A stretch of DNA of 47,763 bases from Thermodesulfobacteriota bacterium (GTDB lineage: Bacteria; Desulfobacterota; Desulfobulbia; Desulfobulbales; DAOVYS01), in assembly GCA_034659175.1 (NCBI GenBank), contig JAYEGR010000027.1:1-47763 (forward strand), in the 5' to 3' direction. The notes beneath the pieces are model-generated. The model had not been told where the DNA came from. It made no database searches and was given only the letters and a program-made list of their open reading frames with translations. Position numbers and translations under genes: made by a program. Shown here one piece after another: positions 7,852-26,771 of the stretch. Positions within the stretch are counted from its first letter, which is position 1. Each line of letters begins with the position of its first letter.

Positions 7852-7927
7852 GCGCCCGTAGCTCAACGGATAGAGTGCCGGACTACGAATCCGTAGGTTG
7901 CAGGTTCGAATCCTGCCGGGCGCGCCA
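7852..7927 (+). tRNA. tRNA-Arg (anticodon ACG), CCA encoded
   Basis: Hand-folded cloverleaf of 76 nt. Acceptor stem is GCGCCCG/CGGGCGC and the D arm is GCTC-AACGGATA-GAGT. The anticodon arm is CCGGA-CTACGAA-TCCGT and the T arm is GCAGG-TTCGAAT-CCTGC, with discriminator G and CCA. There is one C-U mismatch at the top of the anticodon stem. Confidence 0.9.
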
Positions 7928-10233: not shown

Positions 10234-12624
10234 TTATTTCCACATCCCTAATACCTGCTGCAGCGCATCGTCCAATTGTCTCATGTCGTACGGTTTGGCC
10301 ACCACACCGCAAAAGCCGTATTTTTTATAATCCGCCATGACCGGGTCAGTAGAATAGCCGCTTGAGACAATGGCTTTGACACCGGGGTCGATCTCAAGGA
10401 TTTTCCTGATGGCCTTTTTGCCCCCCATCCCTCCGGGAACAGTCAGGTCCATGATTACGCAAATAAAAGGATGACCCGCATCTCTTGCCTGCCGGTACAG
10501 TTCTACCGCCTTGTCGCCGTCTTCGGCAAACTTCACCTCATAACCAAGATGTCTGAGCATCTCGCCGGACGCTTCCAGTACCATCTTGTCATCATCCATC
10601 AATAATATTTTCCCGTTCCCTTTAACGGCCCTGCCTCTTTCTTTTTCCTTGACCTCCGATTTTTTATATGAGGCCGGCAGATAAACACAAAAGACGGTGC
10701 CCACGCCCACCTCGGATTCCACCGTCATGTCGCCGTGATGCCTTCTGATAATGGAATGAGCAGTAGCCAGCCCGAGTCCGCTCCCCTTCTGCTTGCTCGT
10801 AAAATAGGGGTCAAATACCTTGGAGAGGTGTTCCTTTGCTATTCCGATCCCATGATCTTTGATTGATATTATTACGTATTTTCCATCTGTTAACGGCAGC
10901 CCGCTTTTTTTGTTGACCATGGCATTTTCACTATGCACTTCAATGATCCCCCCCTCCGGCATGGACTGGTCAGCGTTGATAAGCAAATTATTAATCACCT
11001 GATTTATCTGCCCCTCGTCTGCTTCAACCGGCCAAAGGTTATCCGGAATAGAAACTTCGCAACTGACATTTGAACCACTCAATGCAAAAGAGACTGATTC
11101 CTTTACCATTCCGGCAATAGAAACGGTCTTCTTGATCGGCTTGCCGCCTTTTGAAAACGTAAGTAATTGCAGGGTCAAATCAGTTGCGCGCGAGCACGCC
11201 TTTCCCGCCGCATCCAGCCTTTCAAATAGCCTGCCTTCCGGGTTTGCCTGTATCTTTGCCAGGGTGATATTCCCAAGGATCCCTGTTAGAATATTGTTGA
11301 AATCATGAGCAATGCCGCCTGCCAGGACACCCACGGATTCGAGCTTGTCCGCCCTTACCAGTTTTTGCCTCAGTCTTTGTTTTGCAGTGACATCCCGAAA
11401 GACCAGAATTATACCGATGGTCTTGCCTTTCTTGTCCAGGATTGGAGCGCCGCTATCTGCAATAATTCTCTCTGTCCCATCCCTTGCTATGAGGACCGTA
11501 TTATTGGCCAGACCGACAACCCTGCCCGTCTCCATCACCTTCCTGGCAGGATTCTCACAGAGCTGGCGGGTTTTTTCATTGATGATGTGAAAAATCTTGT
11601 CTAGAAATTTGCCGATACTCTCTTTTTGACTCCAGCCGGTCAATTTTTCGGCCACTTTGTTGATCAAGACCACGGAGCCTTCTGCATCAGTTGCAATCAC
11701 TCCATCGCCGATGGACCGCAGCGTAACAGCGAGACGTTCCTTCTCTGCAATAAGGGCATCCTCCATCTGTCTGCGCAGGGTCATGTCCTTGACTGTTCCA
11801 AAGGCTGACAATCTGCCCTGGTAGTTGAGGAAACCAACGGTCATATTGACAATCGTCCGTGTGACTCCGTCCTTTTGCAGCGCCCGGAATTCGTATTCCT
11901 TTGGCACATCTTTTCCTGCCATCATTCGAACATAGCGATCCGCAACCATCTCCAGGTCCTCGGGCGCAACAAAATCCTTGAATTCTTTTCCTGTGATTTC
12001 TTTCACTGTGCTGCCGCCCATTCTTGCAAACGCCTCGTTGGCAAACAGGATCTTTCCATCCTGTATAATGAAGACACCGTCCTGAATATTTTCAATCAGG
12101 GTGCGATATTTTTCTTCTGATCGTCTGAGGGCCTCATGCATTCGCCTTTGCTCGGTTAGATCGCTGCAAATATATACTATTTCGCTAATGCGTCGCTGGT
12201 CGTCAAAAACAGGCATGCTCGTCCATGCGATCCAGGCCATTTCACCATCCCGGTGCATGATTTCATTTTCCTGGTTAACATATCGCTCCGGATGTTTTGT
12301 GATATCAGTGATTATTGTTTCCAGGTTATTTCTCCAGGTATCCGTCTTGGGAAAGATGGTGCCAACGACATTCCTGCCGATTATTTCATTCCTCGTGTAG
12401 CCAAAAAACTCCTCGGCAAAATCATTTAGATCAGTAACGCGTCCCTTTGTGTCCATACGCAAGATAATGGTCTTTCGCTTACCGACAAGCTCCCTGTAGT
12501 CGGCTTCGGTCCCGGGTGCGCTTTTGCATGTTGCTTTAAATTCGTCAACCCCATCGCTGATTTCAATCTTTAACGCCTCTACATCATCTTTGAATTGCCT
12601 TTTTCTCTCGTGCCTGGGGCTCAT
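10234..12624 (-). CDS. PAS-domain hybrid sensor histidine kinase with C-terminal receiver
   Basis: Several PAS-like blocks are followed by the H-box GGIAHDFNNIL. An HATPase N/G-box is present (NLLINADQSMPEGG, GSGLGLA). The receiver domain shows ILLMDDD...DLTVPGGMGG...SGY. Confidence 0.9.
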   Translation of the reverse strand: MSPRHERKRQFKDDVEALKIEISDGVDEFKATCKSAPGTEADYRELVGKRKTIILRMDTKGRVTDLNDFAEEFFGYTRNEIIGRNVVGTIFPKTDTWRNNLETIITDITKHPERYVNQENEIMHRDGEMAWIAWTSMPVFDDQRRISEIVYICSDLTEQRRMHEALRRSEEKYRTLIENIQDGVFIIQDGKILFANEAFARMGGSTVKEITGKEFKDFVAPEDLEMVADRYVRMMAGKDVPKEYEFRALQKDGVTRTIVNMTVGFLNYQGRLSAFGTVKDMTLRRQMEDALIAEKERLAVTLRSIGDGVIATDAEGSVVLINKVAEKLTGWSQKESIGKFLDKIFHIINEKTRQLCENPARKVMETGRVVGLANNTVLIARDGTERIIADSGAPILDKKGKTIGIILVFRDVTAKQRLRQKLVRADKLESVGVLAGGIAHDFNNILTGILGNITLAKIQANPEGRLFERLDAAGKACSRATDLTLQLLTFSKGGKPIKKTVSIAGMVKESVSFALSGSNVSCEVSIPDNLWPVEADEGQINQVINNLLINADQSMPEGGIIEVHSENAMVNKKSGLPLTDGKYVIISIKDHGIGIAKEHLSKVFDPYFTSKQKGSGLGLATAHSIIRRHHGDMTVESEVGVGTVFCVYLPASYKKSEVKEKERGRAVKGNGKILLMDDDKMVLEASGEMLRHLGYEVKFAEDGDKAVELYRQARDAGHPFICVIMDLTVPGGMGGKKAIRKILEIDPGVKAIVSSGYSTDPVMADYKKYGFCGVVAKPYDMRQLDDALQQVLGMWK

Positions 12625-12694: not shown

Positions 12695-12871
12695 GTAATT
12701 ATTCGGCTTGTGTGGAAATATTACAAAAAACCTCAGTCTGTAAATGTTTGACAGTGCACCCCAAGGGCACTTCCTGCGGGGCGCTCCAGGTGTTCGCGAT
12801 CAGGCCTTTCAGCGATACATAAGTATGCTGGAAGGCTGATCGTGGACAGACGGAGTGCTGCTGAATATTTC
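12695..12871 (+). repeat. Family-1 modular intergenic repeat, copy B (long form, inverted relative to copy A)
   Basis: It has the same termini, internal long stem and core (GCACCCCAAGGGCACTTCC) as the reverse complement of 4559-4733. It sits in the divergent region between the kinase gene and the DUF401-like gene. Confidence 0.85.
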
Positions 12872-13201: not shown

Positions 13202-14485
13202 ATGCTCTTTGCCGTTCCTGCGCTTGTCAAAATATCAGTGATTTTTGCCCTTGTCCTTGTTCTCAGCAGGTTCAAGGCGCCGCTTTATGCCTGTCTCTTT
13301 TCCGCCGCAGTTGCAACAGGACTCTGGACGGGCCATGCCCCTGTTGAAGTGGCCCGTCTTGTTCTAGTTCAATCACTGGCAAGTGAGAGCCTGTGGCTGA
13401 CCCTGATCATAGTGGAGATCATTGTCTTGAGCCATCTGCTTAAGGAAGGACGCCAGATGGAGCGGATTGTTGACACTTTTAAGGCAGTCTCTCCTGGGAA
13501 TCGCTTCACACTGGCGTCCCTGCCCGCGATTATCGGTCTTCTCCCCATGCCGGGAGGCGCGCTTTTTTCAGCGCCCATGGTGGAATCGAGCGCTGCCAAG
13601 AGCGGGCTTTCTCTGGAACTTAAAGCCGCAATAAACTACTGGTTCAGGCACCTATGGGAATACTGGTGGCCCCTGTACCCTGGTTTACTCCTGGCGATCA
13701 GCCTGTTGGGCGTGGAACCATGGAAGGTTATTCTGTTTCAGTTTCCTTTGTCTATCGGAGTGCTGATCAGCGGTATCATATTCCTGCTTTCCCGCTGTCC
13801 AAAAATAGAATCACACACAAGACCCGCCTGGAAGGACCTGAAAAGGTTTTTTTACGAGCTCACCCCTTTTTCGGTGGTTATTGTCACCATGTTCGGCCTG
13901 AACTACGCAGTGGAACTCATCCAGCCCCCATTTGCCTGGCCGAAGCAGCTCAATTTTCTGACAGGCCTCGTCCTGGCCCAGTACTGGGTCATAAAGACAA
14001 ACAAGCTTCCGATACGGTTTATAAAAAACGCCCTCTTCTGTCGTTCCACCGTGAATATGGCTATGATCATACTCGGCATCATGGCCTTCAAGGGGGTATT
14101 GATTGAGAGCGAAATCATAGGGGCAATCCAGCAGGATCTGATCCGTTATCATATACCTGCAACCCTTGTGGTCGCCCTCCTCCCTTTTATTTCCGGGCTG
14201 GTCACAGGTATCGCCGTGGGATTTGTCGGCAGTTCATACCCCCTGATTATCGCGATCCTTTCCGGCCAGGTCCACGGCAGCGAGATACTCGCCTATTCCG
14301 TGCTTGCCTACGGATTCGGCTACATGGGAATGATGATGAGCCCTGTCCACCTCTGCCTCCTTGTCAGCAAAGACTACTTCCATTCCGACCTGGCTGGAAT
14401 CTATAAACTGCTCCTTATGCCTATGTTATTTGTTCTCGCATGGACAGTGATTATGTTTGGCGCAGCAAAGATGATTGTGGGATAA
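13202..14485 (+). CDS. Polytopic inner-membrane protein, DUF401-like (function unknown)
   Basis: The 427-aa ORF is almost entirely hydrophobic helices. The family call rests on my recollection of the DUF401/TIGR00529 N-terminus and length, so the function is unassigned. Confidence 0.6.
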   Translation: MLFAVPALVKISVIFALVLVLSRFKAPLYACLFSAAVATGLWTGHAPVEVARLVLVQSLASESLWLTLIIVEIIVLSHLLKEGRQMERIVDTFKAVSPGNRFTLASLPAIIGLLPMPGGALFSAPMVESSAAKSGLSLELKAAINYWFRHLWEYWWPLYPGLLLAISLLGVEPWKVILFQFPLSIGVLISGIIFLLSRCPKIESHTRPAWKDLKRFFYELTPFSVVIVTMFGLNYAVELIQPPFAWPKQLNFLTGLVLAQYWVIKTNKLPIRFIKNALFCRSTVNMAMIILGIMAFKGVLIESEIIGAIQQDLIRYHIPATLVVALLPFISGLVTGIAVGFVGSSYPLIIAILSGQVHGSEILAYSVLAYGFGYMGMMMSPVHLCLLVSKDYFHSDLAGIYKLLLMPMLFVLAWTVIMFGAAKMIVG

Positions 14486-14528
14486 GAGATGTTATCTTAT
14501 CTCCTGCGAGGTAATCGTTCACAGGCGC

Positions 14529-15332
14529 CTAATCTCGTGTTCGATCAATTCTGAACGAAGCAACGAATGGAAGATGGTCCGAGACGGTCTCTCGAAACCG
14601 CTCCCGACCGATGTCCATACTCCAGTGCATTGGAAATATACGAAGGCTCCCGCGAATGTACTCGGTACTGTATGTCCGACTTATCGCAAAACCATCCAAT
14701 AGGTTTGCTCTACCAGCCTTCAAGATGTGTGAAAAACGTGCTTGAAGATCCCATGATGACAGAAAATTCATCAGGTCGTCGCCACCGAGATGGTGGAAAT
14801 TACTGACATCTTGACCAGGAATCATGTTGAAATCGCCGACTAATAAAATGTCTTCCCGGCTCTTTTCCCGAAGTTCCTTGATGAATTGCCCGATGACCTT
14901 TGCCTGATCGTCGCGAATCTTCTGTTCTTTGGCGCCCCGCCCCGACTTAAGGTGCACAACGATGAGCAGAAAGTCGAAATTGCCGATCTTCATGTCAACG
15001 ACGAAGGCTTTTCGTCTCCTGGTGTCACCGAGGTCGGAGCCATCTATGAATCGCGGATTTGTAGACGTAACCCCGGTTTTATGTAGCACGCCAATGTTTA
15101 AGTCATTTTCCTGTTTAAGAATGGTGTACTCGTAACTTACGCCTTTGTTTTGAAGTCCTTGTTTCAAAGTTTCAATCGCTGAAAGTGGGTTGATTTCGAC
15201 AAGCGCGACGATTTCTGCATCAAGCAGTGCAAGCCCGTCGACTTGTCGCTCCAGTCTATCAGCCGAAATCGGATCAAACCCGGAAAGGTTCCATGCAGCT
15301 ACGTTTGCGGTTGTGCGACCGAAATCAGTCAT
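14529..15332 (-). CDS. Endonuclease/exonuclease/phosphatase (EEP) family protein
   Basis: EEP motifs are NLSGF (N-terminal), VGDFN and SDHLPFVASF. I moved the start to the ATG at 15332 (MTDFG) because GGGAGGA lies 6 nt upstream; the track TTG at 15347 lies inside that SD. Confidence 0.8.
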   Translation of the reverse strand: MTDFGRTTANVAAWNLSGFDPISADRLERQVDGLALLDAEIVALVEINPLSAIETLKQGLQNKGVSYEYTILKQENDLNIGVLHKTGVTSTNPRFIDGSDLGDTRRRKAFVVDMKIGNFDFLLIVVHLKSGRGAKEQKIRDDQAKVIGQFIKELREKSREDILLVGDFNMIPGQDVSNFHHLGGDDLMNFLSSWDLQARFSHILKAGRANLLDGFAISRTYSTEYIRGSLRIFPMHWSMDIGRERFRETVSDHLPFVASFRIDRTRD

Positions 15333-15456: not shown

Positions 15457-18279
15457 CAGACCATTCCGCACCGTTTTCAGGACAAATCCTAAAACACGTT
15501 TTTAGTACACCTCGTTCAGGTGTTCTCGGCATACTGATTTTCGAATTTTACCTTCAGTCCAAGACCTCCCCACCAGGCAACCCTGTTGAGTCCACGTTCA
15601 GAACGACTCTGCAGAAGACGACCAATCGCGGACTGGAGTTCTCCCTGTCCCGTGTCCAGATAGGTGAGTTCCAGATGGTCGCCACGTTGACGAACGTTAC
15701 AGTTGTGCCTTCCGAATAGCAAGTATCGAAAGGTCGATAATGTCCTCTTGTACCCTGCCGAATCTCTGACAAACCTTTCATCCAGGGACTGTAGAAAATT
15801 CTCATAGGCGAGTCTGGCCACCTGTACACAGTAGAAGTTGGTCTCTATCTTCTCTGGATCTTTACCCAGGATTTGATCTATGAAGTAGCTGTGGATCAAA
15901 TCCTTTAATCCGTTTTCGATGGGCCAGCGTAGCCTGTATCTATCCAAGACCTCTTGATTCGTGAGATCTTGAAAAGTAGTTCCGAAACAACGCACATCAC
16001 CTGTTTTCTTGTTCCTTTTGACCACCAAGTGGAGCACCTTGGCGAGATTGCTCAGGTCAAACCGTTTTCCCGCGATCTCGTATTCCTTCCCAAAAGCTTC
16101 CCATTGGGCTTCGGAGACCACTTCATATATCAGCTGATCAACTCGCTTGTTTCGTTTCAGGCACATGATCACATCGACTTGGGAGAACTCATCGACGACA
16201 AAATAGTCGATTACCGGAAAGCTCGCGTATTCGCTGTCCATGTAGATCTCACGCATCGCATCGCGCCCCAGGATCGGATAGAGGTTCTTTTCGCAGAACT
16301 CGCGGACAATCCTCGTTGCTCTGCTCGAACCGTTGCAGAATGCTATGTTGATTAAAACGTCCGTGTCGAGGTCCCAGATAACATGGGGCCGAAAGCCGGG
16401 ACAAATATCGCCGGCAAAGTTGGGTCCTTTGCCAATTTCCTCTGTGTCGGGCTGAAGGCCGTAGAACTCTTTGAAGTGAAAATCCTGTGCGATCTTATCG
16501 CCCCGGATCAAACCCAGATCCCGCGCCCTGGCGGCCACGTCATTTCGAAGAGCCTGGAGGTGCTTGAACTTCAGATCAGCAAACCCATCGTACAGGGCCG
16601 TCTTCCCCGGAAAGACACCCACGCCGGCCGCGACCGCCACAGAGCGATCACTGTTTCCATCGGGGTGTCCCACCGTCTCGTATCCAGCCAGGATTCGGCA
16701 GACGTTCAAGAGGACAAGATTGGTGATCTCACTGCCCTCGCCCCTTTTAGGACCGTAGGTATGGAGAGCCTCGCAGACCCCCAGATCATCAATAAACTGC
16801 GCAAGCACAATCGGACCAGGATCGCAGACCGCAAATGCCCGGCTCTTCATACGCTCCAAAAAATGTGCGAAGTGCGCGTTCAACTTTTTTGGAACCAGAA
16901 ACCGGCCTGCCTCGGCCGCCTCTTTTGCTGTCTTGAGAAGAGATCCCGGCTTCTCCGACACCTCTTCTCCCCAAAGACCACGCAATCGTACCGGCCTGCG
17001 TTTCTTCTCCAAGAGTTCCCAGTACCGCAGGACTTCGTAAAGCGCCGAGCGGGAACAGCGCAAGTCCATCCGCGCCATCAGCTCATCCAAGCTGAAACGC
17101 GGATGTTCCACCTTCTCCTCAATGATGCGCAGCTCCAATTCATCGGAGATTTTCCCCCGACCCCGACCCGGCTGTATCCAATCCACCAACCCCCACGCGC
17201 CGTAGTGCCGAAAGCGATGCAGGTACTTGTAAAAGGTTGGTCGCGACATACCATAGCGGCGTATTGTATCCCCTGACTTGCGCTTCTGCTTCAAGCCCAG
17301 TTCCCGAAATAACTCGAAGCGTAATTGCAGCGCCTCCTCAGGCCTGTAGAACGTACCCCTGCGGTCTGTCTTGCTTCGGGTCGGCCCTATTTGCGACGCT
17401 AACCGCCGAATCGCCCGCACGCTCTGCTGGATTCCATGCCAGTAGCGCCGGTCATTCTCATCGCGGTTATTCCCGATTCCATGGCAATGCAAAGCATGGC
17501 TGATCGTACGTAGCGTGGGGCTTGGTGTTAGACCAAGCGACTCGGCGAAGCGCAATATCATCGTTTCCGTGGCCTTGGGCCTGGACATCTTCACCATCAA
17601 AGCGAGACGTTCAAGCTTGTGGTTCTGCTTCTTTGCGCCCAACTCAGGGTAGAGAGCAGCGTTCCCGTGTTTGATGAATGCGGTCTCTATGCGGTAGAAG
17701 TCAGTTCTGAAACAACAAGCATCTTTGCAGGCTGCGGTGATGGAATTCCGTTCCATCCAAACACTACGAAGCATCTCGTAGTTGTGCACAACCGGATCGT
17801 CGATAAAAAAAGGCACATCAGGATTGGGCGCCTTCAGTAGCGCATGGGCGACCATTGAAGGAAGCTCGGCCAGATAGCTCATTTGTTTCCGGGTGAAGAT
17901 CATGGTCCATGATTGTAAATGCCTAATCTGGATAAGTCAAGCTTTTTTGTATACCCCCATACCGAACATGGAGAATCAGCCTCAATTTGAGATAACCCGT
18001 TGAGACAATAAACATAATGAACAATGGCCATGATCAGACAAGGCTGGAGTACAAAGTGGCCGCAGATAGGATTTCCATCACAGGGATAAAATTTCCTTAT
18101 CTATAGAGGGATTGGGGCTCAATCCGCCCGTTTTGCGACTATTCGATTAGGGGATTTACATTTTGTTCGGAATGGCTATTTACAGCACAGTAAAATATCC
18201 TGATTTTTCAACTGGTTGCACCGAAAACGCATTCAAAGCCACGACGAAAACTGTACCTAAGACGGTGCGGAATGGTCTG
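15457..18279 (-). mobile_element. Insertion sequence (~2.8 kb) with terminal inverted repeats
   Basis: CAGACCATTCCGCACCGT at 15457-15474 is the exact reverse complement of 18262-18279 (18/18). Weaker similarity continues ~12 nt inward. A single long transposase ORF lies inside. No convincing target-site duplication was seen. Confidence 0.8.
15516..17903 (-). CDS. DDE transposase (IS4-like superfamily), 795 aa with a long HTH-rich N-terminal region
   Basis: The C-terminal signature YRLRWPIENGLKD is Y-x2-R-x3-E-x3-K. Candidate DDE blocks are FIDDLG and IYMDSEYAS. The N-terminal half has HTH-like segments (RRYGMSRPTFYKYLHRF). Confidence 0.85.
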   Translation of the reverse strand: MIFTRKQMSYLAELPSMVAHALLKAPNPDVPFFIDDPVVHNYEMLRSVWMERNSITAACKDACCFRTDFYRIETAFIKHGNAALYPELGAKKQNHKLERLALMVKMSRPKATETMILRFAESLGLTPSPTLRTISHALHCHGIGNNRDENDRRYWHGIQQSVRAIRRLASQIGPTRSKTDRRGTFYRPEEALQLRFELFRELGLKQKRKSGDTIRRYGMSRPTFYKYLHRFRHYGAWGLVDWIQPGRGRGKISDELELRIIEEKVEHPRFSLDELMARMDLRCSRSALYEVLRYWELLEKKRRPVRLRGLWGEEVSEKPGSLLKTAKEAAEAGRFLVPKKLNAHFAHFLERMKSRAFAVCDPGPIVLAQFIDDLGVCEALHTYGPKRGEGSEITNLVLLNVCRILAGYETVGHPDGNSDRSVAVAAGVGVFPGKTALYDGFADLKFKHLQALRNDVAARARDLGLIRGDKIAQDFHFKEFYGLQPDTEEIGKGPNFAGDICPGFRPHVIWDLDTDVLINIAFCNGSSRATRIVREFCEKNLYPILGRDAMREIYMDSEYASFPVIDYFVVDEFSQVDVIMCLKRNKRVDQLIYEVVSEAQWEAFGKEYEIAGKRFDLSNLAKVLHLVVKRNKKTGDVRCFGTTFQDLTNQEVLDRYRLRWPIENGLKDLIHSYFIDQILGKDPEKIETNFYCVQVARLAYENFLQSLDERFVRDSAGYKRTLSTFRYLLFGRHNCNVRQRGDHLELTYLDTGQGELQSAIGRLLQSRSERGLNRVAWWGGLGLKVKFENQYAENT

Positions 18280-18531
18280 TCCTTATATAGACACCACAGG
18301 AGGATAGACCGGGCTTGTTCAACAACCGGATAAGATCGTGGCTCGCTTTGCTCACACGATCTATCCTTATTCGTTCGGCGTTTTTTACCGATTATGAACT
18401 TAACATTCCTTAAAAGTCCCATTTTTGGTGTAGAAATGGGCTTTCAAGATCGTTTTCACACATTTTTCAACGTGTTTTTACTATGATTTCAAATGTTTGG
18501 CTTGGTTTGACACCAGTTTGGTCGGTTTATT

Positions 18532-18750
18532 CTATGCCACCCGGTAAATAACAGGTCGATATTCCGGCGAAGGAATCGGTTTACCGTTTGCCTTTGCTGC
18601 TTCTAGCCAGCTTTTCTTGGCGGCCAATACTTCTTCCAGCGCTTGATCCGGTTTTTCAGCAAAGGCAGAGCATGCTTTTAAGTCTGGAATATCCGCGATA
18701 TATCCCTCATCTTCTTCACTGTAAAAAATATTGATATGATAATCTTTCAT
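18532..18750 (-). CDS. hicB: HicB-family antitoxin
   Basis: The 72-aa ORF MKDYHINIFYSEEDEGYIADIPDLKACSAFAEKPDQALEEV is a typical HicB/UPF0150 N-terminal fold. It lies immediately downstream of hicA. Confidence 0.8.
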   Translation of the reverse strand: MKDYHINIFYSEEDEGYIADIPDLKACSAFAEKPDQALEEVLAAKKSWLEAAKANGKPIPSPEYRPVIYRVA

Positions 18751-18788
18751 TATTCTTCCTCCATTTGGAGATTGTGGCTTTCTATCAA

Positions 18789-19001
18789 TTACAGAAATTG
18801 TTTGATTTGATATGGTTTTGCCTTTCCTTTGACATTTTGCAAGTTCAACAAGTCAGGAATGTCTTTGTGCGTAAGGATATGATGGCTTCCGTTTACCCTG
18901 TCCAACTGAAAACCGAATACCTCAGCACATGCCATCGCTTCCGAAAAACGAATATTTTTTGTTCCTGATAGTAATTTTTGAAGAAGCTTTCTCTTTTTCA
19001 T
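18789..19001 (-). CDS. hicA: HicA-family mRNA interferase toxin
   Basis: The 70-aa ORF has the YcfA/HicA pattern (KLLQKLLSG...GFQLDRVNGSHHILTH...KPYQIKQ). Confidence 0.8.
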   Translation of the reverse strand: MKKRKLLQKLLSGTKNIRFSEAMACAEVFGFQLDRVNGSHHILTHKDIPDLLNLQNVKGKAKPYQIKQFL

Positions 19002-19053: not shown

Positions 19054-19383
19054 TAACCTTTCTCTGGGTAGAATTTGGCATAAATTTCTTTTCTATCGCT
19101 CTCTCTGTATCGCCCGATAACGCTGTCGTAGGTACCGTTATATTTTGTCAGCGGCCTTCTGAATATGCCCTTAATCTGACCATACGAAAATGCTGATATT
19201 TTCTTCTAAAAGGAAGGGAATTTAACAAATTTTCTTATATTTTCTTCCCATATTCTTCTAACTAGTTGAAATCCCGGCACTTTACATTCGACAAGAAGCA
19301 TAAATCATGCCAGTAAATGCCGTATTTACATATGGTCACATTTACTACAATTTCACGCGGTCGCTAACATATTTTGCACATCT

Positions 19384-19497
19384 GTAATAAATGGGGTAAT
19401 AAATGGGGTCAGAGTAAAGGTTAAAAACCTTGAATTAATGGTTTGATTTTACTCTGAACCCATTTATTTGGACCCCATTTATTCACACCATTTATTC
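19384..19497. repeat. Palindromic cluster of AATAAATGGGG / CCATTTATT motifs
   Basis: The left half has GTAATAAATGGGG, TAATAAATGGGG and TCAGAGTAAA. The right half has TTTACTCTGA followed by three CCATTTATT-containing units. The halves are inverted with respect to each other around a ~29-nt spacer. Confidence 0.6.
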
Positions 19498-19957
19498 ATA
19501 GACCTCTTTGGGCACCAGTGGTCGGATGGCCCACCTGTGGTCTTTAGGCTTTGCGGAAGGATCGTTTTTCTCTGCTTTCATTTCACCTTACCTTTACAAT
19601 TTGGTGGTTCCAGCCAGATGATAGGAAATTGCTTTTTTTGCGGTCGGATCGGAGGGAGAAAAAAGTGTCTCCGACCCCCTTCTAACGACTAAAATAATTT
19701 TTAATCGATTATATTTTATATTGTCAAGTGGGAAATCAGGTCTGAATATTTCAAAAAAGGGATGGGGGAAGTTGTTTTGTCCCTATCCCTTATATGAAAT
19801 ATCCAAGGGTCAGTTGTTAATTGTTGACATAATCATTACACCAAATTATTATATCGGATTTTCTAAAATATTGCTTATAACTGTCTGGGAGAAAGATTTT
19901 TCCTGGGGAAATATTCGAATTTTTGCATTTCCGGATGAGCGTCTCGATACAATCATA

Positions 19958-20612
19958 ATGTTTGAAAATCTGTCAGATCGTTTAAACGATGTCTTTTTTA
20001 AAAAGCTCAGGGGTCACGGTAAGCTTTCCGAGGAGAACATCAAGGAGGCCATGCGTGAAGTTCGTATGGCTCTACTTGAGGCTGACGTTAATTTCAAGGT
20101 TGTAAAGGAGTTCATTGCCGTTATAACGGAAAAGGCTGTCGGTCGGGATGTGCTGGAAAGCCTGTCTCCCGGACAGCAGGTTGTCAAGGTTGTCCATGAA
20201 AACCGTATCTTGTGCCGGCTGACGTTTATCGTCCCGCCGCTATCGAACATTCGCATTCTGGGCAAAAGCATTTCCGTGCCCGTACACCCGTCACAGACTG
20301 ATCAGAATCCCGTGTCGATCTGCGGTAGTGCGGTTACAGCTTAAGGAACAGGTCGTAAATAAATTGAACAAAATTCCATCTCATCTTCAGGCCATCTTTG
20401 GCTGGCTTTCAATCACAAAATCCTCAACGTAGCCCTGCTACGCCTGCGGTTTTGCTCAATCAAGCCAGCTAAATCTAACCTAAAGCTGAGCGTAATTTTG
20501 CTCAATTTATTTCCTCTCTGTTCCTAAGTTTGTTGGTACCGACGAAAATCTTGACGCACTTGAAATTTTTCATCCTGACCGACTGGCATCACGTATCCTG
20601 TGATATGGATGA
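19958..20612 (+). pseudogene. ffh: Decayed duplicate of the ffh 5' half (SRP GTPase pseudogene)
   Basis: About 95 percent nucleotide identity by eye to 25101-25339 (MFENLSDRLNDV...QQVVK). It has a 3-nt insertion and a ~150-bp deletion that removes the GLQGSGKTTT P-loop, plus a 2-nt indel. A MITE (20340-20528) replaces about 270 bp. Homology resumes at 20529-20612 (matching 25912-25995) and then stops. Confidence 0.85.
20340..20528. mobile_element. MITE-like element (family 3) inserted in the ffh pseudogene
   Basis: About 39-bp imperfect terminal inverted repeats: CTTAAGGAACAGgtcgtAAATAAATTGAACAAAATT versus the reverse complement CTTAGGAACAGagaggAAATAAATTGAGCAAAATT. The interior is itself palindromic (GCTGGCTTTCAATCACAAAATCCTCAACGTAG / CTACGCCTGCGGTTTTGCTCAATCAAGCCAGC). 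Confidence 0.7.
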
Positions 20613-20621
20613 TAGGTAATT

Positions 20622-22154
20622 ATGATGCAGATGAACACTACAAATGAAAAAGAGAGGAATATTATAATAAGAATACTTGTAAAAAAGTCATTTCTTTTAT
20701 GCCTGTTTATCTTTTGTGCTTGCATATTTTCAGACAAGTCTTTTGCAACGCCGGATTCAGCGCGCACTATCCCGCCGGAATATCAAAAGGAAACACCAAA
20801 AAAGAAACCACGACTCCCATCACAACGGCTCGGTATTACCATAAACCCTGCCTCAATATTGAAACTACCGCCGTTAGATACAGCGCCGCTTTTAGCAGAA
20901 GATGCTGCCCAAGGCCATGGGCCAGCCCGCATCGGGGTGCATCGAGATCTAAATGTTTCACCGGAGACCCATGGCGAATGGCATGATATTGACGGCCGAG
21001 GACGTATTTGGCTTTTTGGCATTCATGCCCCTGATGCTAAAGGTTTCAGGATTCATTTCTCACAATGCTATTTGCCGAAAGGCGCACACATTTATGTCTA
21101 TTCACCTTCAAGACTCGATAAATATGAGGGTCCTTATAGATACTGTAAATGGGTAGGTACTGTTTGGGATAATACAGTTATTGTTGAATTAGTGGTGCCG
21201 GTTTTAACAGACCCGTCCCCATCTTTTGTGATTGATAAAATTGGTCATATGTATCGCTCAGTAAATCAACAACTGCTACCAAGGAAAACGTTACGTCAGG
21301 ACGGGGGGCCATGCAGGGTAGATGCAGCCTGCTATCCGGAATGGGCAATCGACGGCGATGCTGTGGGTTTAGTGGAGTTTGAGAAAATGGGTCAATTTGC
21401 GGTATGCTCTGGTACTATGCTGGACAATCAGGCTGAAGATTATACTCCATACTTTCTCACTGCCGAACATTGTATTGCAAGCGACGCTGTCGCTGATACG
21501 GCGAGAATTTATTGGTTTTATGAAACTTCGGCCTGCAATGGCTCGCCTTCTGATCTAAATAGTGTTCCAAAGTCAGAGAATGCCATGCTTCTTGCAAGTA
21601 AAACAGACATTGATTTTAGTGTACTGGAGATACTCGGGTCTGTGCCGCGCTCTTTGAGTTGGGCAAAATGGTCACTAACAGAACCTGAAACAGGAGATAG
21701 CGGCGTGGGACTTCATCACCCAGGGGGCACATTCCTTGGTAACGACGATTATAGACGAATTCTCTTTGGTAATATTGCCAGTAGTTCTACCGATTATATG
21801 TGGTACATCGATCATTGTCTTGGTGGTACTGAAACAGGTTCCTCAGGCTCTCCATTTTTTAATTCTTCCCATCAAATAATTGGGCAACTCTCTGGCGGTA
21901 CCGGAGTACCGTGTAGTCCTGATGATCAATCAAAATACGGCAAATTCTCTTTATCATACCCGTACATGCAAACTCTTCTTCAGGGTGGATCAGATGATGA
22001 ATTAGAAGATAATGACCTTCGTTCATCGGCAACAGAGGTTGAGGATGAAGTTTATAAAAGTCAGGTTGTAAAAATCTATGATGAAGACTGGTGTAAAATC
22101 AGTGTTCCTGAAAACACAAAAATCTCCGTAGATCTTTCTTTCATACATACATAA
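20622..22154 (+). CDS. Secreted trypsin-fold (S1, lysyl-endopeptidase-like) serine protease; N-terminal part of a frameshifted gene
   Basis: It has a signal peptide. The catalytic triad contexts are FLTAEHCIAS (His), DFSVLEI (Asp) and GTETGSSGSPFF (Ser). The last ~45 aa begin a PPC (pre-peptidase C-terminal) domain that is cut by the stop at 22152-22154. Confidence 0.8.
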   Translation: MMQMNTTNEKERNIIIRILVKKSFLLCLFIFCACIFSDKSFATPDSARTIPPEYQKETPKKKPRLPSQRLGITINPASILKLPPLDTAPLLAEDAAQGHGPARIGVHRDLNVSPETHGEWHDIDGRGRIWLFGIHAPDAKGFRIHFSQCYLPKGAHIYVYSPSRLDKYEGPYRYCKWVGTVWDNTVIVELVVPVLTDPSPSFVIDKIGHMYRSVNQQLLPRKTLRQDGGPCRVDAACYPEWAIDGDAVGLVEFEKMGQFAVCSGTMLDNQAEDYTPYFLTAEHCIASDAVADTARIYWFYETSACNGSPSDLNSVPKSENAMLLASKTDIDFSVLEILGSVPRSLSWAKWSLTEPETGDSGVGLHHPGGTFLGNDDYRRILFGNIASSSTDYMWYIDHCLGGTETGSSGSPFFNSSHQIIGQLSGGTGVPCSPDDQSKYGKFSLSYPYMQTLLQGGSDDELEDNDLRSSATEVEDEVYKSQVVKIYDEDWCKISVPENTKISVDLSFIHT

Positions 22155-24603
22155 TCATGGCAATATCGATCTTCAATTATATCAAGGTTCTAATCCTAAT
22201 CCTATCAGCAGTTCCTCAGGAACAGGGGACTCTGAGCATGTGGAACATTTAAATGAAGGTGAAGCAACAGATTATTTTTTTCGAGTCTTTTTAGACGATG
22301 ATACCCGGAATACATATAACATGATAATAAAATTTGGTGAAGCTGATCCTGCACACTGGATAAAAACATACGGGCTTTATGATGGCACAGCGTATGCTGT
22401 TCAACAGACCTCTGATGATGGCTTTATAGTTAGTGGAATATATGATTACAGGAGTTGGGTATTTAAACTTGATGCAGGTGGGAATATTCAATGGCAAAAG
22501 AATTATGCAAGTGAGGAAAATGATTTTAAGCAGGCTACTCGCCGTATTTTACACCCGACTAAACTTGTATTATCCAAGCCAAAAATGACAATATCCTGGG
22601 CCGAACAATTCTCCATTCAGCAAACATCCGAAGGGGGATATGTAGTAACTGGTCAAAATGAAAATGATTATGATTATGATTATGATGCCTTGGTTTTTAA
22701 ACTCGATCTAAACGGAAATATCCAGTGGCAAAAGACATACGGCGGGAACAATTATGATTTTACTCATGCCATTAAACAGACTTCTGATGGCGGCTATATA
22801 GTTGTTGGGACAAGTTATTCTTTTGGCATGGGAAATGGTGACTGTTGGGTATTAAAACTTGATTCAAGCGGAGTAGTCCAGTGGCAGAAGACATATGGGG
22901 GGACCGAGAATGACGTAGCTTATTCAATCCAACAGACATTAGATAACGGCTATATAGTAGCTGGTGCGACCATGTCTTTTGGCGCTGGAAATGGTGATTT
23001 TTGGGTATTGAAATTAGATAATACCGGGAATGTAATTTGGCAGAGGGCCTATGGGGGTAATGATCAGGATGTTGCCCAGTTTGTTCAGCAAACTTTAGAT
23101 GGAGGGTATATAGTTGTAGGAGAGAGCTACTCATTTGGAGGTGTTTCTATTGACTTCTGGGTAGTAAAGCTTGCAAGTAATGGAGGTGTTGAGTGGCAAA
23201 AAGCTTATGATGTCGGCGCTGATTCAGCTTACTCTGTCAATCAAACAATTGATGGTGGCTATATTATAGCAGGTGATTCGCGTTCTTTTTCCGATTATGA
23301 CTATGATGCTTTGGCCTTAAAACTAGATACGAATGGGAATATTGAATGGCAGCACAGATATGGCGGCAGTGATGATGAGGCTATTTATTCCATCCAGCAG
23401 ACAAGAGAAGGTGAGTACATAGCCGCAGGTTATAGCTGGTCGTTTTTGTCTAATTATGGCTGGGTTTTGAATATTGACAGCACTGGAAATATAGCGGATT
23501 GTTCAGGTGTGGGGTCAGCAAGCGTCACCAATTATGATACAAATGCAATTATAAGCAATACTGAGGGGTTAGCCTTGAATAGTACAGCATCTGCACAACC
23601 GGCTGGTTTGCTGGCCATAGACCTGAGCGATCCTGCCATTGAAGTGTGTCAGGCAATTATGCCGGAGCCGGAACTTTTTGTTAACCGGGCATCTATAGAC
23701 TTCAATTACCTTGGAGTTAATGGCTTAGAAGTAAGGGATGTAAGAGTCTCTAATAAGGGTCAGGCTGATCTTGTGATAGATTCGATTGATATTACAGGCG
23801 CAAATGCAAACGAATTTAGCGAGTCAAATGACTGTTCAAATGTTGCCGTGCTTGATTATTGTACTATTCATGTATTGTGTTTGCCAACCGCTGCCGGACA
23901 AAAAACCGCCTCTCTCGATATTATATCCAATGATCCTCATACACCCAGCTTAAATATAGAATTGAATGGAAATGTAGGCAACCTAGTCACTATAACCAAA
24001 TCAGGTACAGGAGATGGCACAGTCACCAGCACAGCCGGCATAGATTGTGGATATGTCTGTGGAGAAGCCTATCAGAATGGGACTATTATTACATTGATTG
24101 CAACACCTGAGCCTAATTCAACATTTAGTAGCTGGACTGGCTGTGATAGCTCAATGGGGCTTACATGTTCACTGACCGTTAATTCAGACAGGATTGTGAC
24201 TGCTAACTTTATTGCTGAATCTCCAACTTATTACACACTCGATGTTACTAAGGATGGCACAGGAAGTGGGACAGTTCAGAATTGTCTCAAGGGCATTGAT
24301 TGTGGATTAGATTGCACAGAATTCTATATTGATGGAACTCTTACAGTTCTTACTGCTGTTCCTGCTGGTGGCTCAATTTTTGCTGGCTGGACAGGGGGGG
24401 GATGCGGTGGAACAGAGTCATGTGTAGCAACAATGGATGAAAATAAAACAATCACTGCTACATTTACAGATATTCCTAATGATCCAGATTTTGATGGCGA
24501 CGGGGATATAGATGGCACAGATTTATCTGCCTTTGCAATGGAAGTAGCAAGTGGAACAAATACAATCAGTATTGAGGATTTTGCATTCGGTTTTGGTCTA
24601 TGA
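22132..24603 (+). CDS. Continuation of the protease gene in the +1 frame: PPC remainder, 7-repeat beta-propeller, ASH/choice-of-anchor-D-like Ig domain, two InlB-B-repeat-like domains and a dockerin-like Ca-binding tail
   Basis: The frame is open from 22132; the track starts it at GTG 22240. HGNIDLQLYQGSNP...GEATDYFFRVFLDD...YNMIIKFG completes the PPC domain. Seven repeats of about 60 aa follow (consensus W-Q-K-T-Y-G-G ... QQT-DGGYIV-G ... D-WVLKLD). Later come GTGDGTVTS...IDCG..C and GTGSGTV...IDCGLDC repeats, and the tail DPDFDGDGDIDGTD. Confidence 0.8.
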   Translation: MFLSYIHNHGNIDLQLYQGSNPNPISSSSGTGDSEHVEHLNEGEATDYFFRVFLDDDTRNTYNMIIKFGEADPAHWIKTYGLYDGTAYAVQQTSDDGFIVSGIYDYRSWVFKLDAGGNIQWQKNYASEENDFKQATRRILHPTKLVLSKPKMTISWAEQFSIQQTSEGGYVVTGQNENDYDYDYDALVFKLDLNGNIQWQKTYGGNNYDFTHAIKQTSDGGYIVVGTSYSFGMGNGDCWVLKLDSSGVVQWQKTYGGTENDVAYSIQQTLDNGYIVAGATMSFGAGNGDFWVLKLDNTGNVIWQRAYGGNDQDVAQFVQQTLDGGYIVVGESYSFGGVSIDFWVVKLASNGGVEWQKAYDVGADSAYSVNQTIDGGYIIAGDSRSFSDYDYDALALKLDTNGNIEWQHRYGGSDDEAIYSIQQTREGEYIAAGYSWSFLSNYGWVLNIDSTGNIADCSGVGSASVTNYDTNAIISNTEGLALNSTASAQPAGLLAIDLSDPAIEVCQAIMPEPELFVNRASIDFNYLGVNGLEVRDVRVSNKGQADLVIDSIDITGANANEFSESNDCSNVAVLDYCTIHVLCLPTAAGQKTASLDIISNDPHTPSLNIELNGNVGNLVTITKSGTGDGTVTSTAGIDCGYVCGEAYQNGTIITLIATPEPNSTFSSWTGCDSSMGLTCSLTVNSDRIVTANFIAESPTYYTLDVTKDGTGSGTVQNCLKGIDCGLDCTEFYIDGTLTVLTAVPAGGSIFAGWTGGGCGGTESCVATMDENKTITATFTDIPNDPDFDGDGDIDGTDLSAFAMEVASGTNTISIEDFAFGFGL

Positions 24604-24811
24604 AGTAGTTGTACATTCGCTTATTACTTAAAGGTTACGCGAAACTGGAACGATTGGTGATAGAAAACTGCTTTTTTTGCGGTCGGATCGGAGGGAGAAA
24701 AAATTATCTCCGATCCTCTTCTAACGGCTAAAATCATCTTTAATTGATTATATTTTAATGTATCGGAAAAACAAAGTTTTTGAAATATTGATAATTGATC
24801 TTAATTGGGAT

Positions 24812-24971
24812 GGGAGCATTCGCATTTTCTGACAACAAGCTGAAAAATGAAAAAATGTTGCCTGTGACTTAAAATTTCAGGTGTTTTTACTCTCACCGAG
24901 TGCTGATTCTATCAAAAAAGAAGCATATGGTCTTGTGAATTCCTGTTCTGTCAGAAATTGCGAATGCACCC
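24812..24971. mobile_element. 160-bp MITE (family 2) with an 8-bp target-site duplication in the ffh upstream region
   Basis: The TIRs are GGGAGCATTCGCATTTTCTGAC (24812-24833) and the reverse complement of 24950-24971, GGGTGCATTCGCAATTTCTGAC (20/22). It is flanked by direct ATTGGGAT at 24804-24811 and 24972-24979. Confidence 0.8.
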
Positions 24972-25100
24972 ATTGGGATGCCCTTGCCCGAAGGGCATCA
25001 TGTTCCTGAAATATTGCTTATAACTCTCCGGGAGAAAGGTTTTTCCTGGGGAAATATTCGAATTTTTGCATTTCCGGATGAGCGTCTCGAGACAACCACA

Positions 25101-26453
25101 ATGTTTGAAAATCTGTCAGATCGTTTAAACGATGTTTTTAAAAAGCTCCGGGGTCACGGTAAGCTTTCCGAGGAGAACATCAAGGAGGCCATGCGTGAAG
25201 TCCGTATGGCCCTTCTTGAGGCTGATGTTAATTTCAAGGTTGTAAAGGAGTTCATTGCCGTTATAACGGAAAAGGCTGTCGGTCGGGATGTGCTGGAAAG
25301 CCTGTCTCCCGGCCAGCAGGTTGTCAAGATTGTCCATGAGGAATTAATTGAATTACTTGGAGGCCAGGGCGAAGGCCTGAAACTTACCGGACCGTCACCA
25401 GCCATTATCATGCTGGTTGGGTTACAGGGTTCCGGTAAGACGACAACTGCCGGCAAGCTGGCCGGATTCCTGAAATCAAAGGGACGAAGACCGTATCTTG
25501 TGCCGGCTGACGTTTATCGTCCCGCTGCTATTGAACAGCTTCGTATTCTGGGCAAAAGCATTTCCGTGCCCGTTCACCCGTCACAGACTGACCAGAATCC
25601 CGTGTCGATCTGCAGTAGTGCGGTTTCAGCGGCAAAGGAAAATCGGCATGACATCGTAATTCTTGACACTGCGGGACGACTCCATATTGACGAGGTCCTG
25701 ATGGAGGAACTCGCTCAGATCAAAACAGAGGTAAGGCCTGCCGAGATCCTGTTTGTCGCTGATGCGATGACCGGGCAGGACGCGGTCACGGTTGTTGAAA
25801 AATTTAACATTGGTCTTGAGATCACCGGCGTAATTCTCACCAAGATGGAGGGTGATGCCCGGGGTGGCGCGGCCCTGTCAATAAAAAAAGTAACTCAAAA
25901 ACCGATTAAGTTTGTTGGTACCGGCGAAAATCTTGACGCACTTGAAATTTTTCATCCTGACCGGTTGGCATCACGTATCCTGGGAATGGGTGATATTCTT
26001 ACGCTGATCGAGAAGGCTGAAGAGGTTGTTGATAAAAAAAAGGCGGAAAAACTCCTCAAGAAAATCAAGAAAAACGCCTTTACCCTGGAAGACTTTCTTG
26101 ATCAGATCCAACAGATAAAAAAGATGGGTAGCCTGAAACAGATCATGGGCATGATACCTGGTATAAACAAGATTAAGCAGCTTAAAAATATGCCGACACC
26201 GGATGAAAAAGAACTTGTCCGGGTGGAGGCGATTATCAAATCCATGACCCTTGATGAACGCCGCAGGTACCAGATTATCAATGCAAGCCGCAGGCAACGT
26301 ATTGCCAGGGGCAGCGGGACCACGGTTCAGGATGTAAATAAGGTACTTAGAAGCTATACTGAAATGCTCAAAATGATGAAAAAAATAGGAGGTCCGGGCA
26401 TGACGGGCGGCGGGAAAAAGAAGCGGAAAAGGCCCAAAGGTCTGTTCCGATAG
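25101..26453 (+). CDS. ffh: Signal recognition particle protein Ffh
   Basis: The N-terminus is MFENLSDRLNDVFKKLRG. The P-loop is GLQGSGKTTT, with DTAGRL and TKMEGDARGG boxes and a Met-rich M domain. I moved the start from the track value 24978 to the ATG at 25101, because the extension reads through the MITE flank. Confidence 0.95.
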   Translation: MFENLSDRLNDVFKKLRGHGKLSEENIKEAMREVRMALLEADVNFKVVKEFIAVITEKAVGRDVLESLSPGQQVVKIVHEELIELLGGQGEGLKLTGPSPAIIMLVGLQGSGKTTTAGKLAGFLKSKGRRPYLVPADVYRPAAIEQLRILGKSISVPVHPSQTDQNPVSICSSAVSAAKENRHDIVILDTAGRLHIDEVLMEELAQIKTEVRPAEILFVADAMTGQDAVTVVEKFNIGLEITGVILTKMEGDARGGAALSIKKVTQKPIKFVGTGENLDALEIFHPDRLASRILGMGDILTLIEKAEEVVDKKKAEKLLKKIKKNAFTLEDFLDQIQQIKKMGSLKQIMGMIPGINKIKQLKNMPTPDEKELVRVEAIIKSMTLDERRRYQIINASRRQRIARGSGTTVQDVNKVLRSYTEMLKMMKKIGGPGMTGGGKKKRKRPKGLFR

Positions 26454-26519
26454 CCCGCTCATTCAGTAAAATATTCGGGTTCACGCGAATCCATAACAAA
26501 TTAAAAGGAAACAGGAAAA

Positions 26520-26771
26520 ATGGCAGTAAAAATCCGTTTAAGTAGATTCGGGAAAAAGAAGCGACCCTTCTACCGTATCGTGGTTGCTAATTCCGAGGCA
26601 AAGCGGGATGGAAAATTTTTAGAGCAGGTAGGAACGTATGATCCGATGAAAGACCCGCTTGAGGTCAAGCTCAACCAGGAAAAACTTCAGGCCTGGCTTG
26701 ACAAAGGCGCCCTGCCTACCACAACCGTAAAAAACCTGATAAAAAAGGCGGCGGCAGCTCCTGCGGAATAA
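26520..26771 (+). CDS. rpsP: 30S ribosomal protein S16
   Basis: [23 protein letters not shown] is the canonical S16 N-terminus. Confidence 0.95.

Follow-up and report, generated by a model that had tools for sequence, protein, structure and literature searches.

Integrative elements that rebuild their target gene, such as prophage e14 in icd of Escherichia coli, encode an integrase, share a short identical core with the target and replace a short 3′ end of the gene. In E. coli conjugation, single crossovers of circular molecules yield partial lacZ duplications of 109–950 bp flanking the insert, and such duplications are far commoner than true homology-facilitated illegitimate recombination (HFIR), which usually deletes recipient DNA (PMC3240628). 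HFIR has been described in naturally transformable bacteria (de Vries and Wackernagel, 2002; Prudhomme et al., 2002; as summarized in PMC3240628 and PMC5361080), and an HFIR-like displacement of parts of a resident gene has been proposed for effector–immunity arrays of the type VI secretion system (PMC5361080). Phage attachment is known in ffs, the gene of the signal recognition particle (SRP) RNA (PMC12540744). Here we describe the locus of ffh, the gene of another SRP component, on contig JAYEGR010000027.1 (C27), which in its entirety (47,763 nucleotides) is the window of this analysis and belongs to the 2.65-Mb, 157-contig, ~88% complete metagenome-assembled genome (MAG) GCA_034659175.1. 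The ffh upstream region and the 5′ part of ffh are present there twice, as an upstream copy B1 and a downstream copy B2, and between them lies a cassette X with a protease gene (Table 1).

Judging by the organization and divergence of these sequences, it is fairly probable that the locus is a chromosomal scar of an additive, homology-anchored integration. The scar belongs to a known kind, of which it is a further example, and it shows no new mechanism; an essential SRP gene is an unusual landing site, and the two-allele signature is clear. As in Campbell-type integration, direct repeats surround the insert, one copy is truncated and the other intact, and neither a recombinase nor an attachment core is needed; the differences are the natural setting in an uncultured member of Desulfobulbales, the diverged segment of putative sister-lineage origin, the essential target and the presumed, rather than observed, circle. 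As in HFIR, one side would be anchored by homology (ffh and the sequence downstream of it), the other joint would lack homology, and genes that the recipient lacks would be imported; however, the usual outcome of HFIR is a deletion in the recipient about as large as the insert, whereas here 1.24 kb is duplicated. Finally, as with e14 in icd and attachment in ffs, an incoming gene end would keep the target functional and leave a pseudo-fragment, and an SRP component serves as the landing site. Unlike e14/icd-type elements, this locus has no integrase or core, the duplicated 1.24 kb extends over the promoter region and two-thirds of the gene from its 5′ end, and only one gene makes up the cargo.

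The duplicated segment of ~1.24 kb, in direct orientation, was delineated by repeat finding and BLASTN. Four collinear matches connect B1 with B2: 19619–19718 with 24658–24757 (90% identity), 19860–20199 with 25003–25339 (94.7%), 20198–20340 with 25486–25630 (93.1%), and 20525–20614 with 25907–25995 (93.3%). With E-values from 1e-33 to 1e-152, the similarity is far beyond chance. An earlier sequence-only reading of this DNA had placed the blocks by eye at 19621–19720/24660–24757, 19868–20340/25009–25632, and 20529–20612/25912–25995, and BLASTN agrees with it within a few nucleotides. The duplication takes in nucleotides 1–895 of ffh, close to the end at about nucleotide 890 read by eye, and the 341 bp that ancestrally lay upstream (443 bp in the present-day B2). 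The ffh start was set at the ATG at 25101 (19958 in B1), because relatives align only from residue ~38–41 of the 491-aa open reading frame (ORF).

TGATA opens the duplicated segment (24658) and closes it (25991–25995); it is the only sequence shared by the repeat ends, with three differences in the last 18 nt, and an identical core is absent from both boundaries. The longest exact match between B1 and B2 (86 nt) is internal to the repeat. One repeat end (24658) falls where conserved DNA upstream of ffh gives way to variable DNA; the second is within ffh. The distal upstream block (24658–24757 and 19619–19718) contains a hairpin with a 9-bp stem, GGATCGGAG...CTCCGATCC, and is matched at ~80% identity on contigs C108, C4, and C69, and hence is itself a small dispersed repeat, whose edge coincides with the left edge of the duplication. 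The only Rfam match in the window is a tRNA at 7852–7924; the duplicated upstream block gave none.

The genome (G000) was compared with three congeners, G001, G002, and G003, the closest being G003 (96.4% genome-wide identity over 75 kb). On a single contig of G003 (C215), a divergently oriented gene encoding an ATPase-like protein of >602 aa, the ffh upstream region, ffh, and rpsP follow one another uninterrupted, and this contig aligns with 19499–20199 (91.4% over 711 bp) and 25003–26758 (96%) of the window. According to these alignments, G003 represents the empty site, B1 retaining the ancestral left context and B2 the ancestral right context. The cassette gene is absent from all three congeners, and no second ffh fragment was found in any of them; thus the comparison with relatives suggested in the sequence-only reading produced an empty site, and two copies without the cassette, the arrangement that would have spoken against an insertion, were not seen among the congeners. 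The difference from G003 changes from 2.7% to 4.4% at the duplication boundary, a step that is not significant, so that a breakpoint is not visible there. Ffh relatives place the genome in Desulfobulbales; the best matches in a scan of a genome collection were Desulfobulbales-type MAGs at 70–74%, none being closer.

The main result lies in how the two copies differ. When substitutions are polarized against G001 and G002, the relationship of B1, B2, and the orthologue of G003 is close to a star, with only one or two shared derived sites per pairing (one for B1 and B2). Any two of the three differ at 16–17 of 196 non-coding positions (~8.5%), a level equal to the neutral divergence of G000 from G003 (pooled synonymous difference pS 0.089 and non-synonymous difference pN 0.015 over 31 genes). 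In the coding part, pS is 0.130 and pN 0.017 between B1 and B2 (omega ~0.13), and 0.063 and 0.0085, respectively, between B2 and G003. Ten out of 15 substitutions unique to B1 are synonymous, compared with 23.6% expected under neutral decay (P = 0.0005), and five non-synonymous changes in B1 are seen against at least 15.7 expected had B1 drifted since the split (P = 0.0018). Because of this synonymous excess and non-synonymous deficit, the copies are best explained as functional alleles of sister lineages: on the substitution pattern, B1 and B2 were already diverged when joined, and most of their divergence arose in separate genomes, the neutral phase of B1 amounting to ~0.002–0.007 substitutions per site (upper bound 0.028). 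Since the copies differ in the way sister-lineage alleles do, the event would have joined DNA from two lineages. That one copy was replaced afterwards by another allele through homologous recombination is excluded, because differences between B1 and B2 start at position 7 from the left repeat end and at position 6 from the right one, and the flanking cassette is unique.

B1 is, by its lesions and context, a displaced ffh fragment contiguous with the ancestral left flank, and a pseudogene. It has a 3-bp insertion, a 148-bp deletion taking out the P-loop, a 2-bp deletion ~50 nt further on that restores the frame, a 1-bp insertion, and a stop codon. In addition, a miniature inverted-repeat transposable element (MITE) stands in place of 276 bp of ffh; it has more than 20 genomic copies, and collinear ffh pieces flank it on both sides. 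The empty site in G003, the absence of the cassette from the congeners, and the substitution pattern bear out the suggestion of the sequence-only reading that an original 5′ fragment was displaced and left to decay. The remaining 128-codon ORF starts at the native ffh ATG, encodes an intact N-domain, lacks the P-loop, runs out of frame for 17 codons, returns to the frame, and stops at a TAA at the MITE edge; it may still be translated. All five unique changes in its N-domain are synonymous, with no non-synonymous ones, which probably is an effect of the history of the allele.

The cassette occurs once in the genome and consists of a single gene; it is not a multi-gene island. Its two ORFs, as judged from their translations, are one frameshift-split gene of ~1,320 codons for a secreted multidomain protease, because the peptide read through the break restores a full-length PPC domain, with a match above the Pfam cut-off across the break. 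The second frame is already open from 22132, and the frame change at the (CATA)3 tract is +1. Both halves are otherwise free of stops; therefore, the break is either recent, or a short tetranucleotide-repeat switch, or a sequencing error. The propeller-like repeats of 52 residues are encoded by 156-nt repeats in the second part. The best homologue of the protease found anywhere is 49% identical, and most are 30–37% identical and annotated as lysyl endopeptidases or trypsin-like peptidases. The metagenome scan gave only relatives at ~35% and no independent copy of the locus, and the exact protease and Ffh proteins were not found in other assemblies.

The ATG of the protease gene is 7 nt past the end of the ffh homology, and its stop codon 54 nt before B2; the gene thus directly adjoins the truncated copy, as had been read from the sequence, with a gap shorter than the 10 nt given there. 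At 41.9%, the GC content of the cassette is below that of the genome (46.2%) and of ffh (48.3%), and it ranks at the 3.7th percentile among 4-kb windows of the genome. It is AT-richer, as had been proposed, the contrast being far below the claimed 33–43% versus 52%. No promoter of its own, mobility gene, or terminal repeats were found in the cassette, nor an inverted repeat between its ends (the best 15-mer match is 9/15). A transposon- or MITE-borne cassette was rejected, as inverted repeats and a target duplication are missing at its ends, and a laboratory construct was rejected, as there are no vector, marker, or origin sequences.

The downstream copy, as had been read from the sequence, belongs to an intact ffh with all three Pfam domains of the SRP54 protein. 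This working ffh is 96% identical to the G003 orthologue and is followed by rpsP, rimM, and trmD. The best promoter-like site in 19300–25300 is the sigma-70-like one in B1 (Table 1), which is retained in G003 and G002; this predicted ancestral ffh promoter precedes B1 only. Upstream of the working ffh, the 141-bp promoter stretch has been swapped for 245 bp of small repeats, members of a ~77-bp repeat family carrying a 160-bp MITE (24812–24971), which is bordered by an 8-bp target duplication ATTGGGAT (24804–24811 and 24972–24979). The present sequence does not match the idea of a replacement promoter carried by the element: the conserved ancestral promoter fronts the decayed copy, and it is B2 that has lost the stretch to repeats. 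From the old promoter to the working ffh, the sequence has no predicted intrinsic terminator. By this layout, the protease gene, and perhaps ffh as well, would now be transcribed from the old promoter. As the working ffh is without the ancestral promoter stretch, its transcription by read-through or from a promoter within a repeat is probable.

How the additive, homology-anchored integration might have proceeded can be outlined as follows. The donor would be a sister lineage at about the divergence of G000 and G003, in whose DNA the protease gene lay immediately upstream of its own ffh upstream region and 5′ part, and it would have supplied the cassette and B2 to the resident ffh locus. The DNA could have formed a circle and integrated through one Campbell-type crossover. 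Alternatively, it could have been linear, recombining homologously within ffh or downstream of it and joining illegitimately at nucleotide 895 of ffh. In either case, the left flank would be followed by the 5′ fragment of the resident ffh (B1), the protease gene, the incoming B2, and the rest of ffh. The integration would keep ffh intact, turn B1 into a pseudogene that later took deletions and the MITE, and leave the promoterless protease gene behind the ancestral ffh promoter. The left repeat end at 24658 would be a native border of conserved and variable DNA in the donor; for a donor with a different accessory content, exactly such a border-type end, together with an end inside the gene, is expected. 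The order of genes in the donor, the circular or linear state of the intermediate, the choice of the resident copy, and the transcription pattern are what we infer from this arrangement. A Campbell-type single crossover had been named in the sequence-only reading as an alternative, and it is the better-supported version, given the direct repeats, the empty site, and the two-allele divergence. Its main proposal, an element integrated in ffh with its own 5′ part, survives as far as the incoming ffh 5′ segment is concerned, and is not supported as to a dedicated ffh-targeting element, in view of the lack of a recombinase on the contig, of an identical core at the repeat ends, and of terminal inverted repeats, and of the 1.24-kb length of the repeat.

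Several points weigh against this integration from a sister lineage. The homologue, assembly, and metagenome searches brought up no donor-type genome in which the protease gene natively precedes ffh, and the locus is known from a MAG contig. The substitution tests are small (~155 codons and 15 B1-unique substitutions), and B1 combines five indel events with few neutral substitutions, which is odd if its neutral phase was short. Moreover, the distance to G003 does not tell the resident copy from the incoming one.

An old event in situ, within one genome, is an alternative: a 1.24-kb tandem duplication would have had its junction at the TGATA microhomology and taken up the 4-kb DNA there, the truncated copy decaying ever since. 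TGATA at both ends of the segment is what such an event could leave, template switching or break repair can account for captured DNA, B1 has many lesions, and the genome is rich in MITEs and rearrangements. We nevertheless consider it unlikely, since, of the changes specific to B1, 10 are synonymous and 5 non-synonymous (P = 0.0005 against neutrality), non-synonymous changes are ~3-fold too few for a non-coding divergence of 8.7% (P = 0.0018), and B1 and B2 share one derived site only. The same two-allele divergence is about what would be seen if the contig were a chimera of two co-occurring related populations, with the ffh copies on separate molecules, a concern that the 157-contig MAG and the failure to find an independent assembly of the junctions make legitimate. 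Yet B1 is a true pseudogene, with the P-loop deleted and a MITE inside, whose genome must hold another ffh; besides, the contig passes directly from B1 through the unique, single-copy cassette to B2, its joints share no repeat, and exact matches of B1 and B2 do not exceed 86 nt. Such an assembly artefact thus seems to us hardly probable.

An integrative island like e14 in icd, site-specific for ffh and equipped with a replacement 5′ end, its integrase being lost or acting in trans, would also restore the target by the element-side copy and leave the displaced fragment behind. Six tyrosine recombinase genes are present elsewhere in the genome, and two further loci (on contigs C52 and C13, see below) show gene-end repeats around small cassettes. 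At the same time, no recombinase was detected on the 47.8-kb contig (no PF00589 match), as the sequence-only reading had stated for an integrase, and the genome, the rest of which that reading had proposed to search, gave no match to serine recombinases (PF00239). Given also that the repeat is 1.24 kb long without an identical core at either boundary, and that the insert is a single promoterless gene starting 7 nt from the junction, we regard such an island as very unlikely. The polarity could, finally, be the reverse, the protease and the ffh of B2 being resident and the left-flank remnant with B1 (19495–20614) imported from a G003-like lineage. B2 is indeed nearer to G003 than B1 at coding sites, both values being within the normal range, and the DNA left of 19495 is MITE-rich and non-syntenic, so that MITEs could have served as portable homology. 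This polarity is improbable in our opinion: it needs two joints without an evident homology anchor, gives no reason for a fragment ending exactly at the start of the cassette gene, and is at odds with the lack of the cassette in all congeners.

If integration from a sister lineage is the right explanation, the locus exemplifies the gain of an accessory gene without mobile-element machinery: homology to a conserved, essential gene would have provided the landing site, and the displaced fragment keeps a record of the event. The layout puts the acquired gene under the promoter of an essential gene and could tie its expression to the ffh–rpsP–rimM–trmD operon. The comparison of synonymous and non-synonymous changes can be used on other pseudo-fragments beside islands.

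Table 1. Features of the ffh locus and its left flank (window coordinates)
Feature	Coordinates	Strand	Basis
B1, ffh upstream region and ffh nt 1–895, decayed	19619..20614	+	repeat finding, collinearity, lesions, substitution pattern
Predicted sigma-70-like ffh promoter, TTGACA-17-TATTAT, 11/12	19824..19852	+	promoter scan; alignment conservation
ffh-remnant ORF, 128 codons	19958..20344	+	Pfam SRP54_N, alignment
MITE-like repeat, ~187 bp, 32-nt terminal inverted repeats	20340..20528	.	inverted repeat; copies on >20 contigs at 85–97%
Cassette X, 4,043 bp, single-copy in the genome	20615..24657	+	genome searches, GC
Cassette gene, part 1: signal-peptide-like N-terminus, trypsin-fold (lysyl-endopeptidase-like) domain, start of PPC	20622..22154	+	Pfam Trypsin_2, homologues, translation
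Cassette gene, part 2: rest of PPC, ~six 52-aa propeller-like repeats, ASH/Ig-like, two InlB B-repeats, dockerin-like Asp-rich tail	22132..24603	+	Pfam PQQ_2, ASH, Flg_new_2; translation
(CATA)3 tract, reading-frame break	22142..22153	+	both frames translated
B2, intact copy of the duplicated segment, upstream region and ffh nt 1–895	24658..25995	+	repeat finding, BLASTN, alignment
Small repeats in place of the 141-bp ancestral promoter stretch	24758..25002	.	genomic copies, alignment
Working ffh, 450 aa, SRP54 N, GTPase, and M domains	25101..26453	+	Pfam
Left-flank ATPase-like gene remnant, first 28 codons	19498..19581	-	tblastn with the G003 protein: aa 1–28 only, 89% identity
hicA/hicB-like toxin–antitoxin pair	18532..19001	-	Pfam HicA_toxin, HicB_lk_antitox
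DDE transposase, 795 aa, of a single-copy insertion sequence (IS)	15516..17903	-	Pfam DDE_Tnp_1, HTH domains; genome search

The left flank of ffh in G002 is unlike that in G003, and therefore this flank is a variable region. In the window, an accessory patch (~14.5–19.5 kb) comprises the IS, the hicAB pair, and MITEs; the search for left-side synteny returned mostly MITE matches, and the sequence left of 19495 is non-syntenic. At 19384–19497, exactly where the ATPase-like gene of the left flank is truncated, AATAAATGGGG units form an inverted pair, with a partial copy on contig C97, and this cluster may mark the rearrangement that removed the rest of the gene. The transposase of the IS is unusually long, has N-terminal HTH domains, and is encoded at 53% GC, compared with 46% for the genome; the IS lies in the rearranged left flank, and the explanation can do without it. 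Several MITE families crowd this genome and its congeners, with tens of copies each at 75–97% identity, and those in the window are at 20340–20528, 24812–24971, 19145–19369, and 12700–12870. Probably, they explain the fragmented assemblies across the genus.

Self-comparison of the genome revealed other low-copy direct repeats around small gene blocks. On contig C52, the last ~250 nt of a gene resembling the B subunit of type II topoisomerases (GyrB/ParE-like) are repeated at 10452–10725 and 14326–14599 (98.9% identity, 3.6 kb apart) and bracket four genes, one for a GNAT acetyltransferase and three of unknown function, an architecture matching that of the ffh locus. Similarly, on contig C13, the last ~245 nt of a BcrAD/BadFG-like ATPase gene (16280–16545) recur 2.2 kb downstream (18516–18782) with 94.8% identity and a 1-nt frameshift, bracketing two small genes without a Pfam match. 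At both loci, one repeat end lies just past the stop codon, a recombinase is absent, and the contigs of G003 end close to these genes. It is conceivable, if rather doubtful, that the lineage repeatedly gains accessory genes without an integrase, by taking up small sister-lineage pieces that carry the end of a conserved, even an essential, gene with its accessory neighbours, through one-sided homology that leaves displaced fragments; at least three loci (ffh, C52, and C13) would fit, the protease being wedged between promoter and gene at ffh. Were this so, the transcription of ffh and the downstream ribosomal operon would depend on read-through of the acquired protease gene, and if the C52 and C13 repeats share the origin of the ffh locus, the process would be recurrent in the lineage. 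Two more direct repeats have spacers of 4.5–5 kb (contig C59, 4634–4835/9826–10025, and contig C84, 3280–3869/8349–8938); one of them is the 5′ part of a NusG-like gene (90.6%), and the other is a 594-bp non-coding block (94.1%) around two genes.

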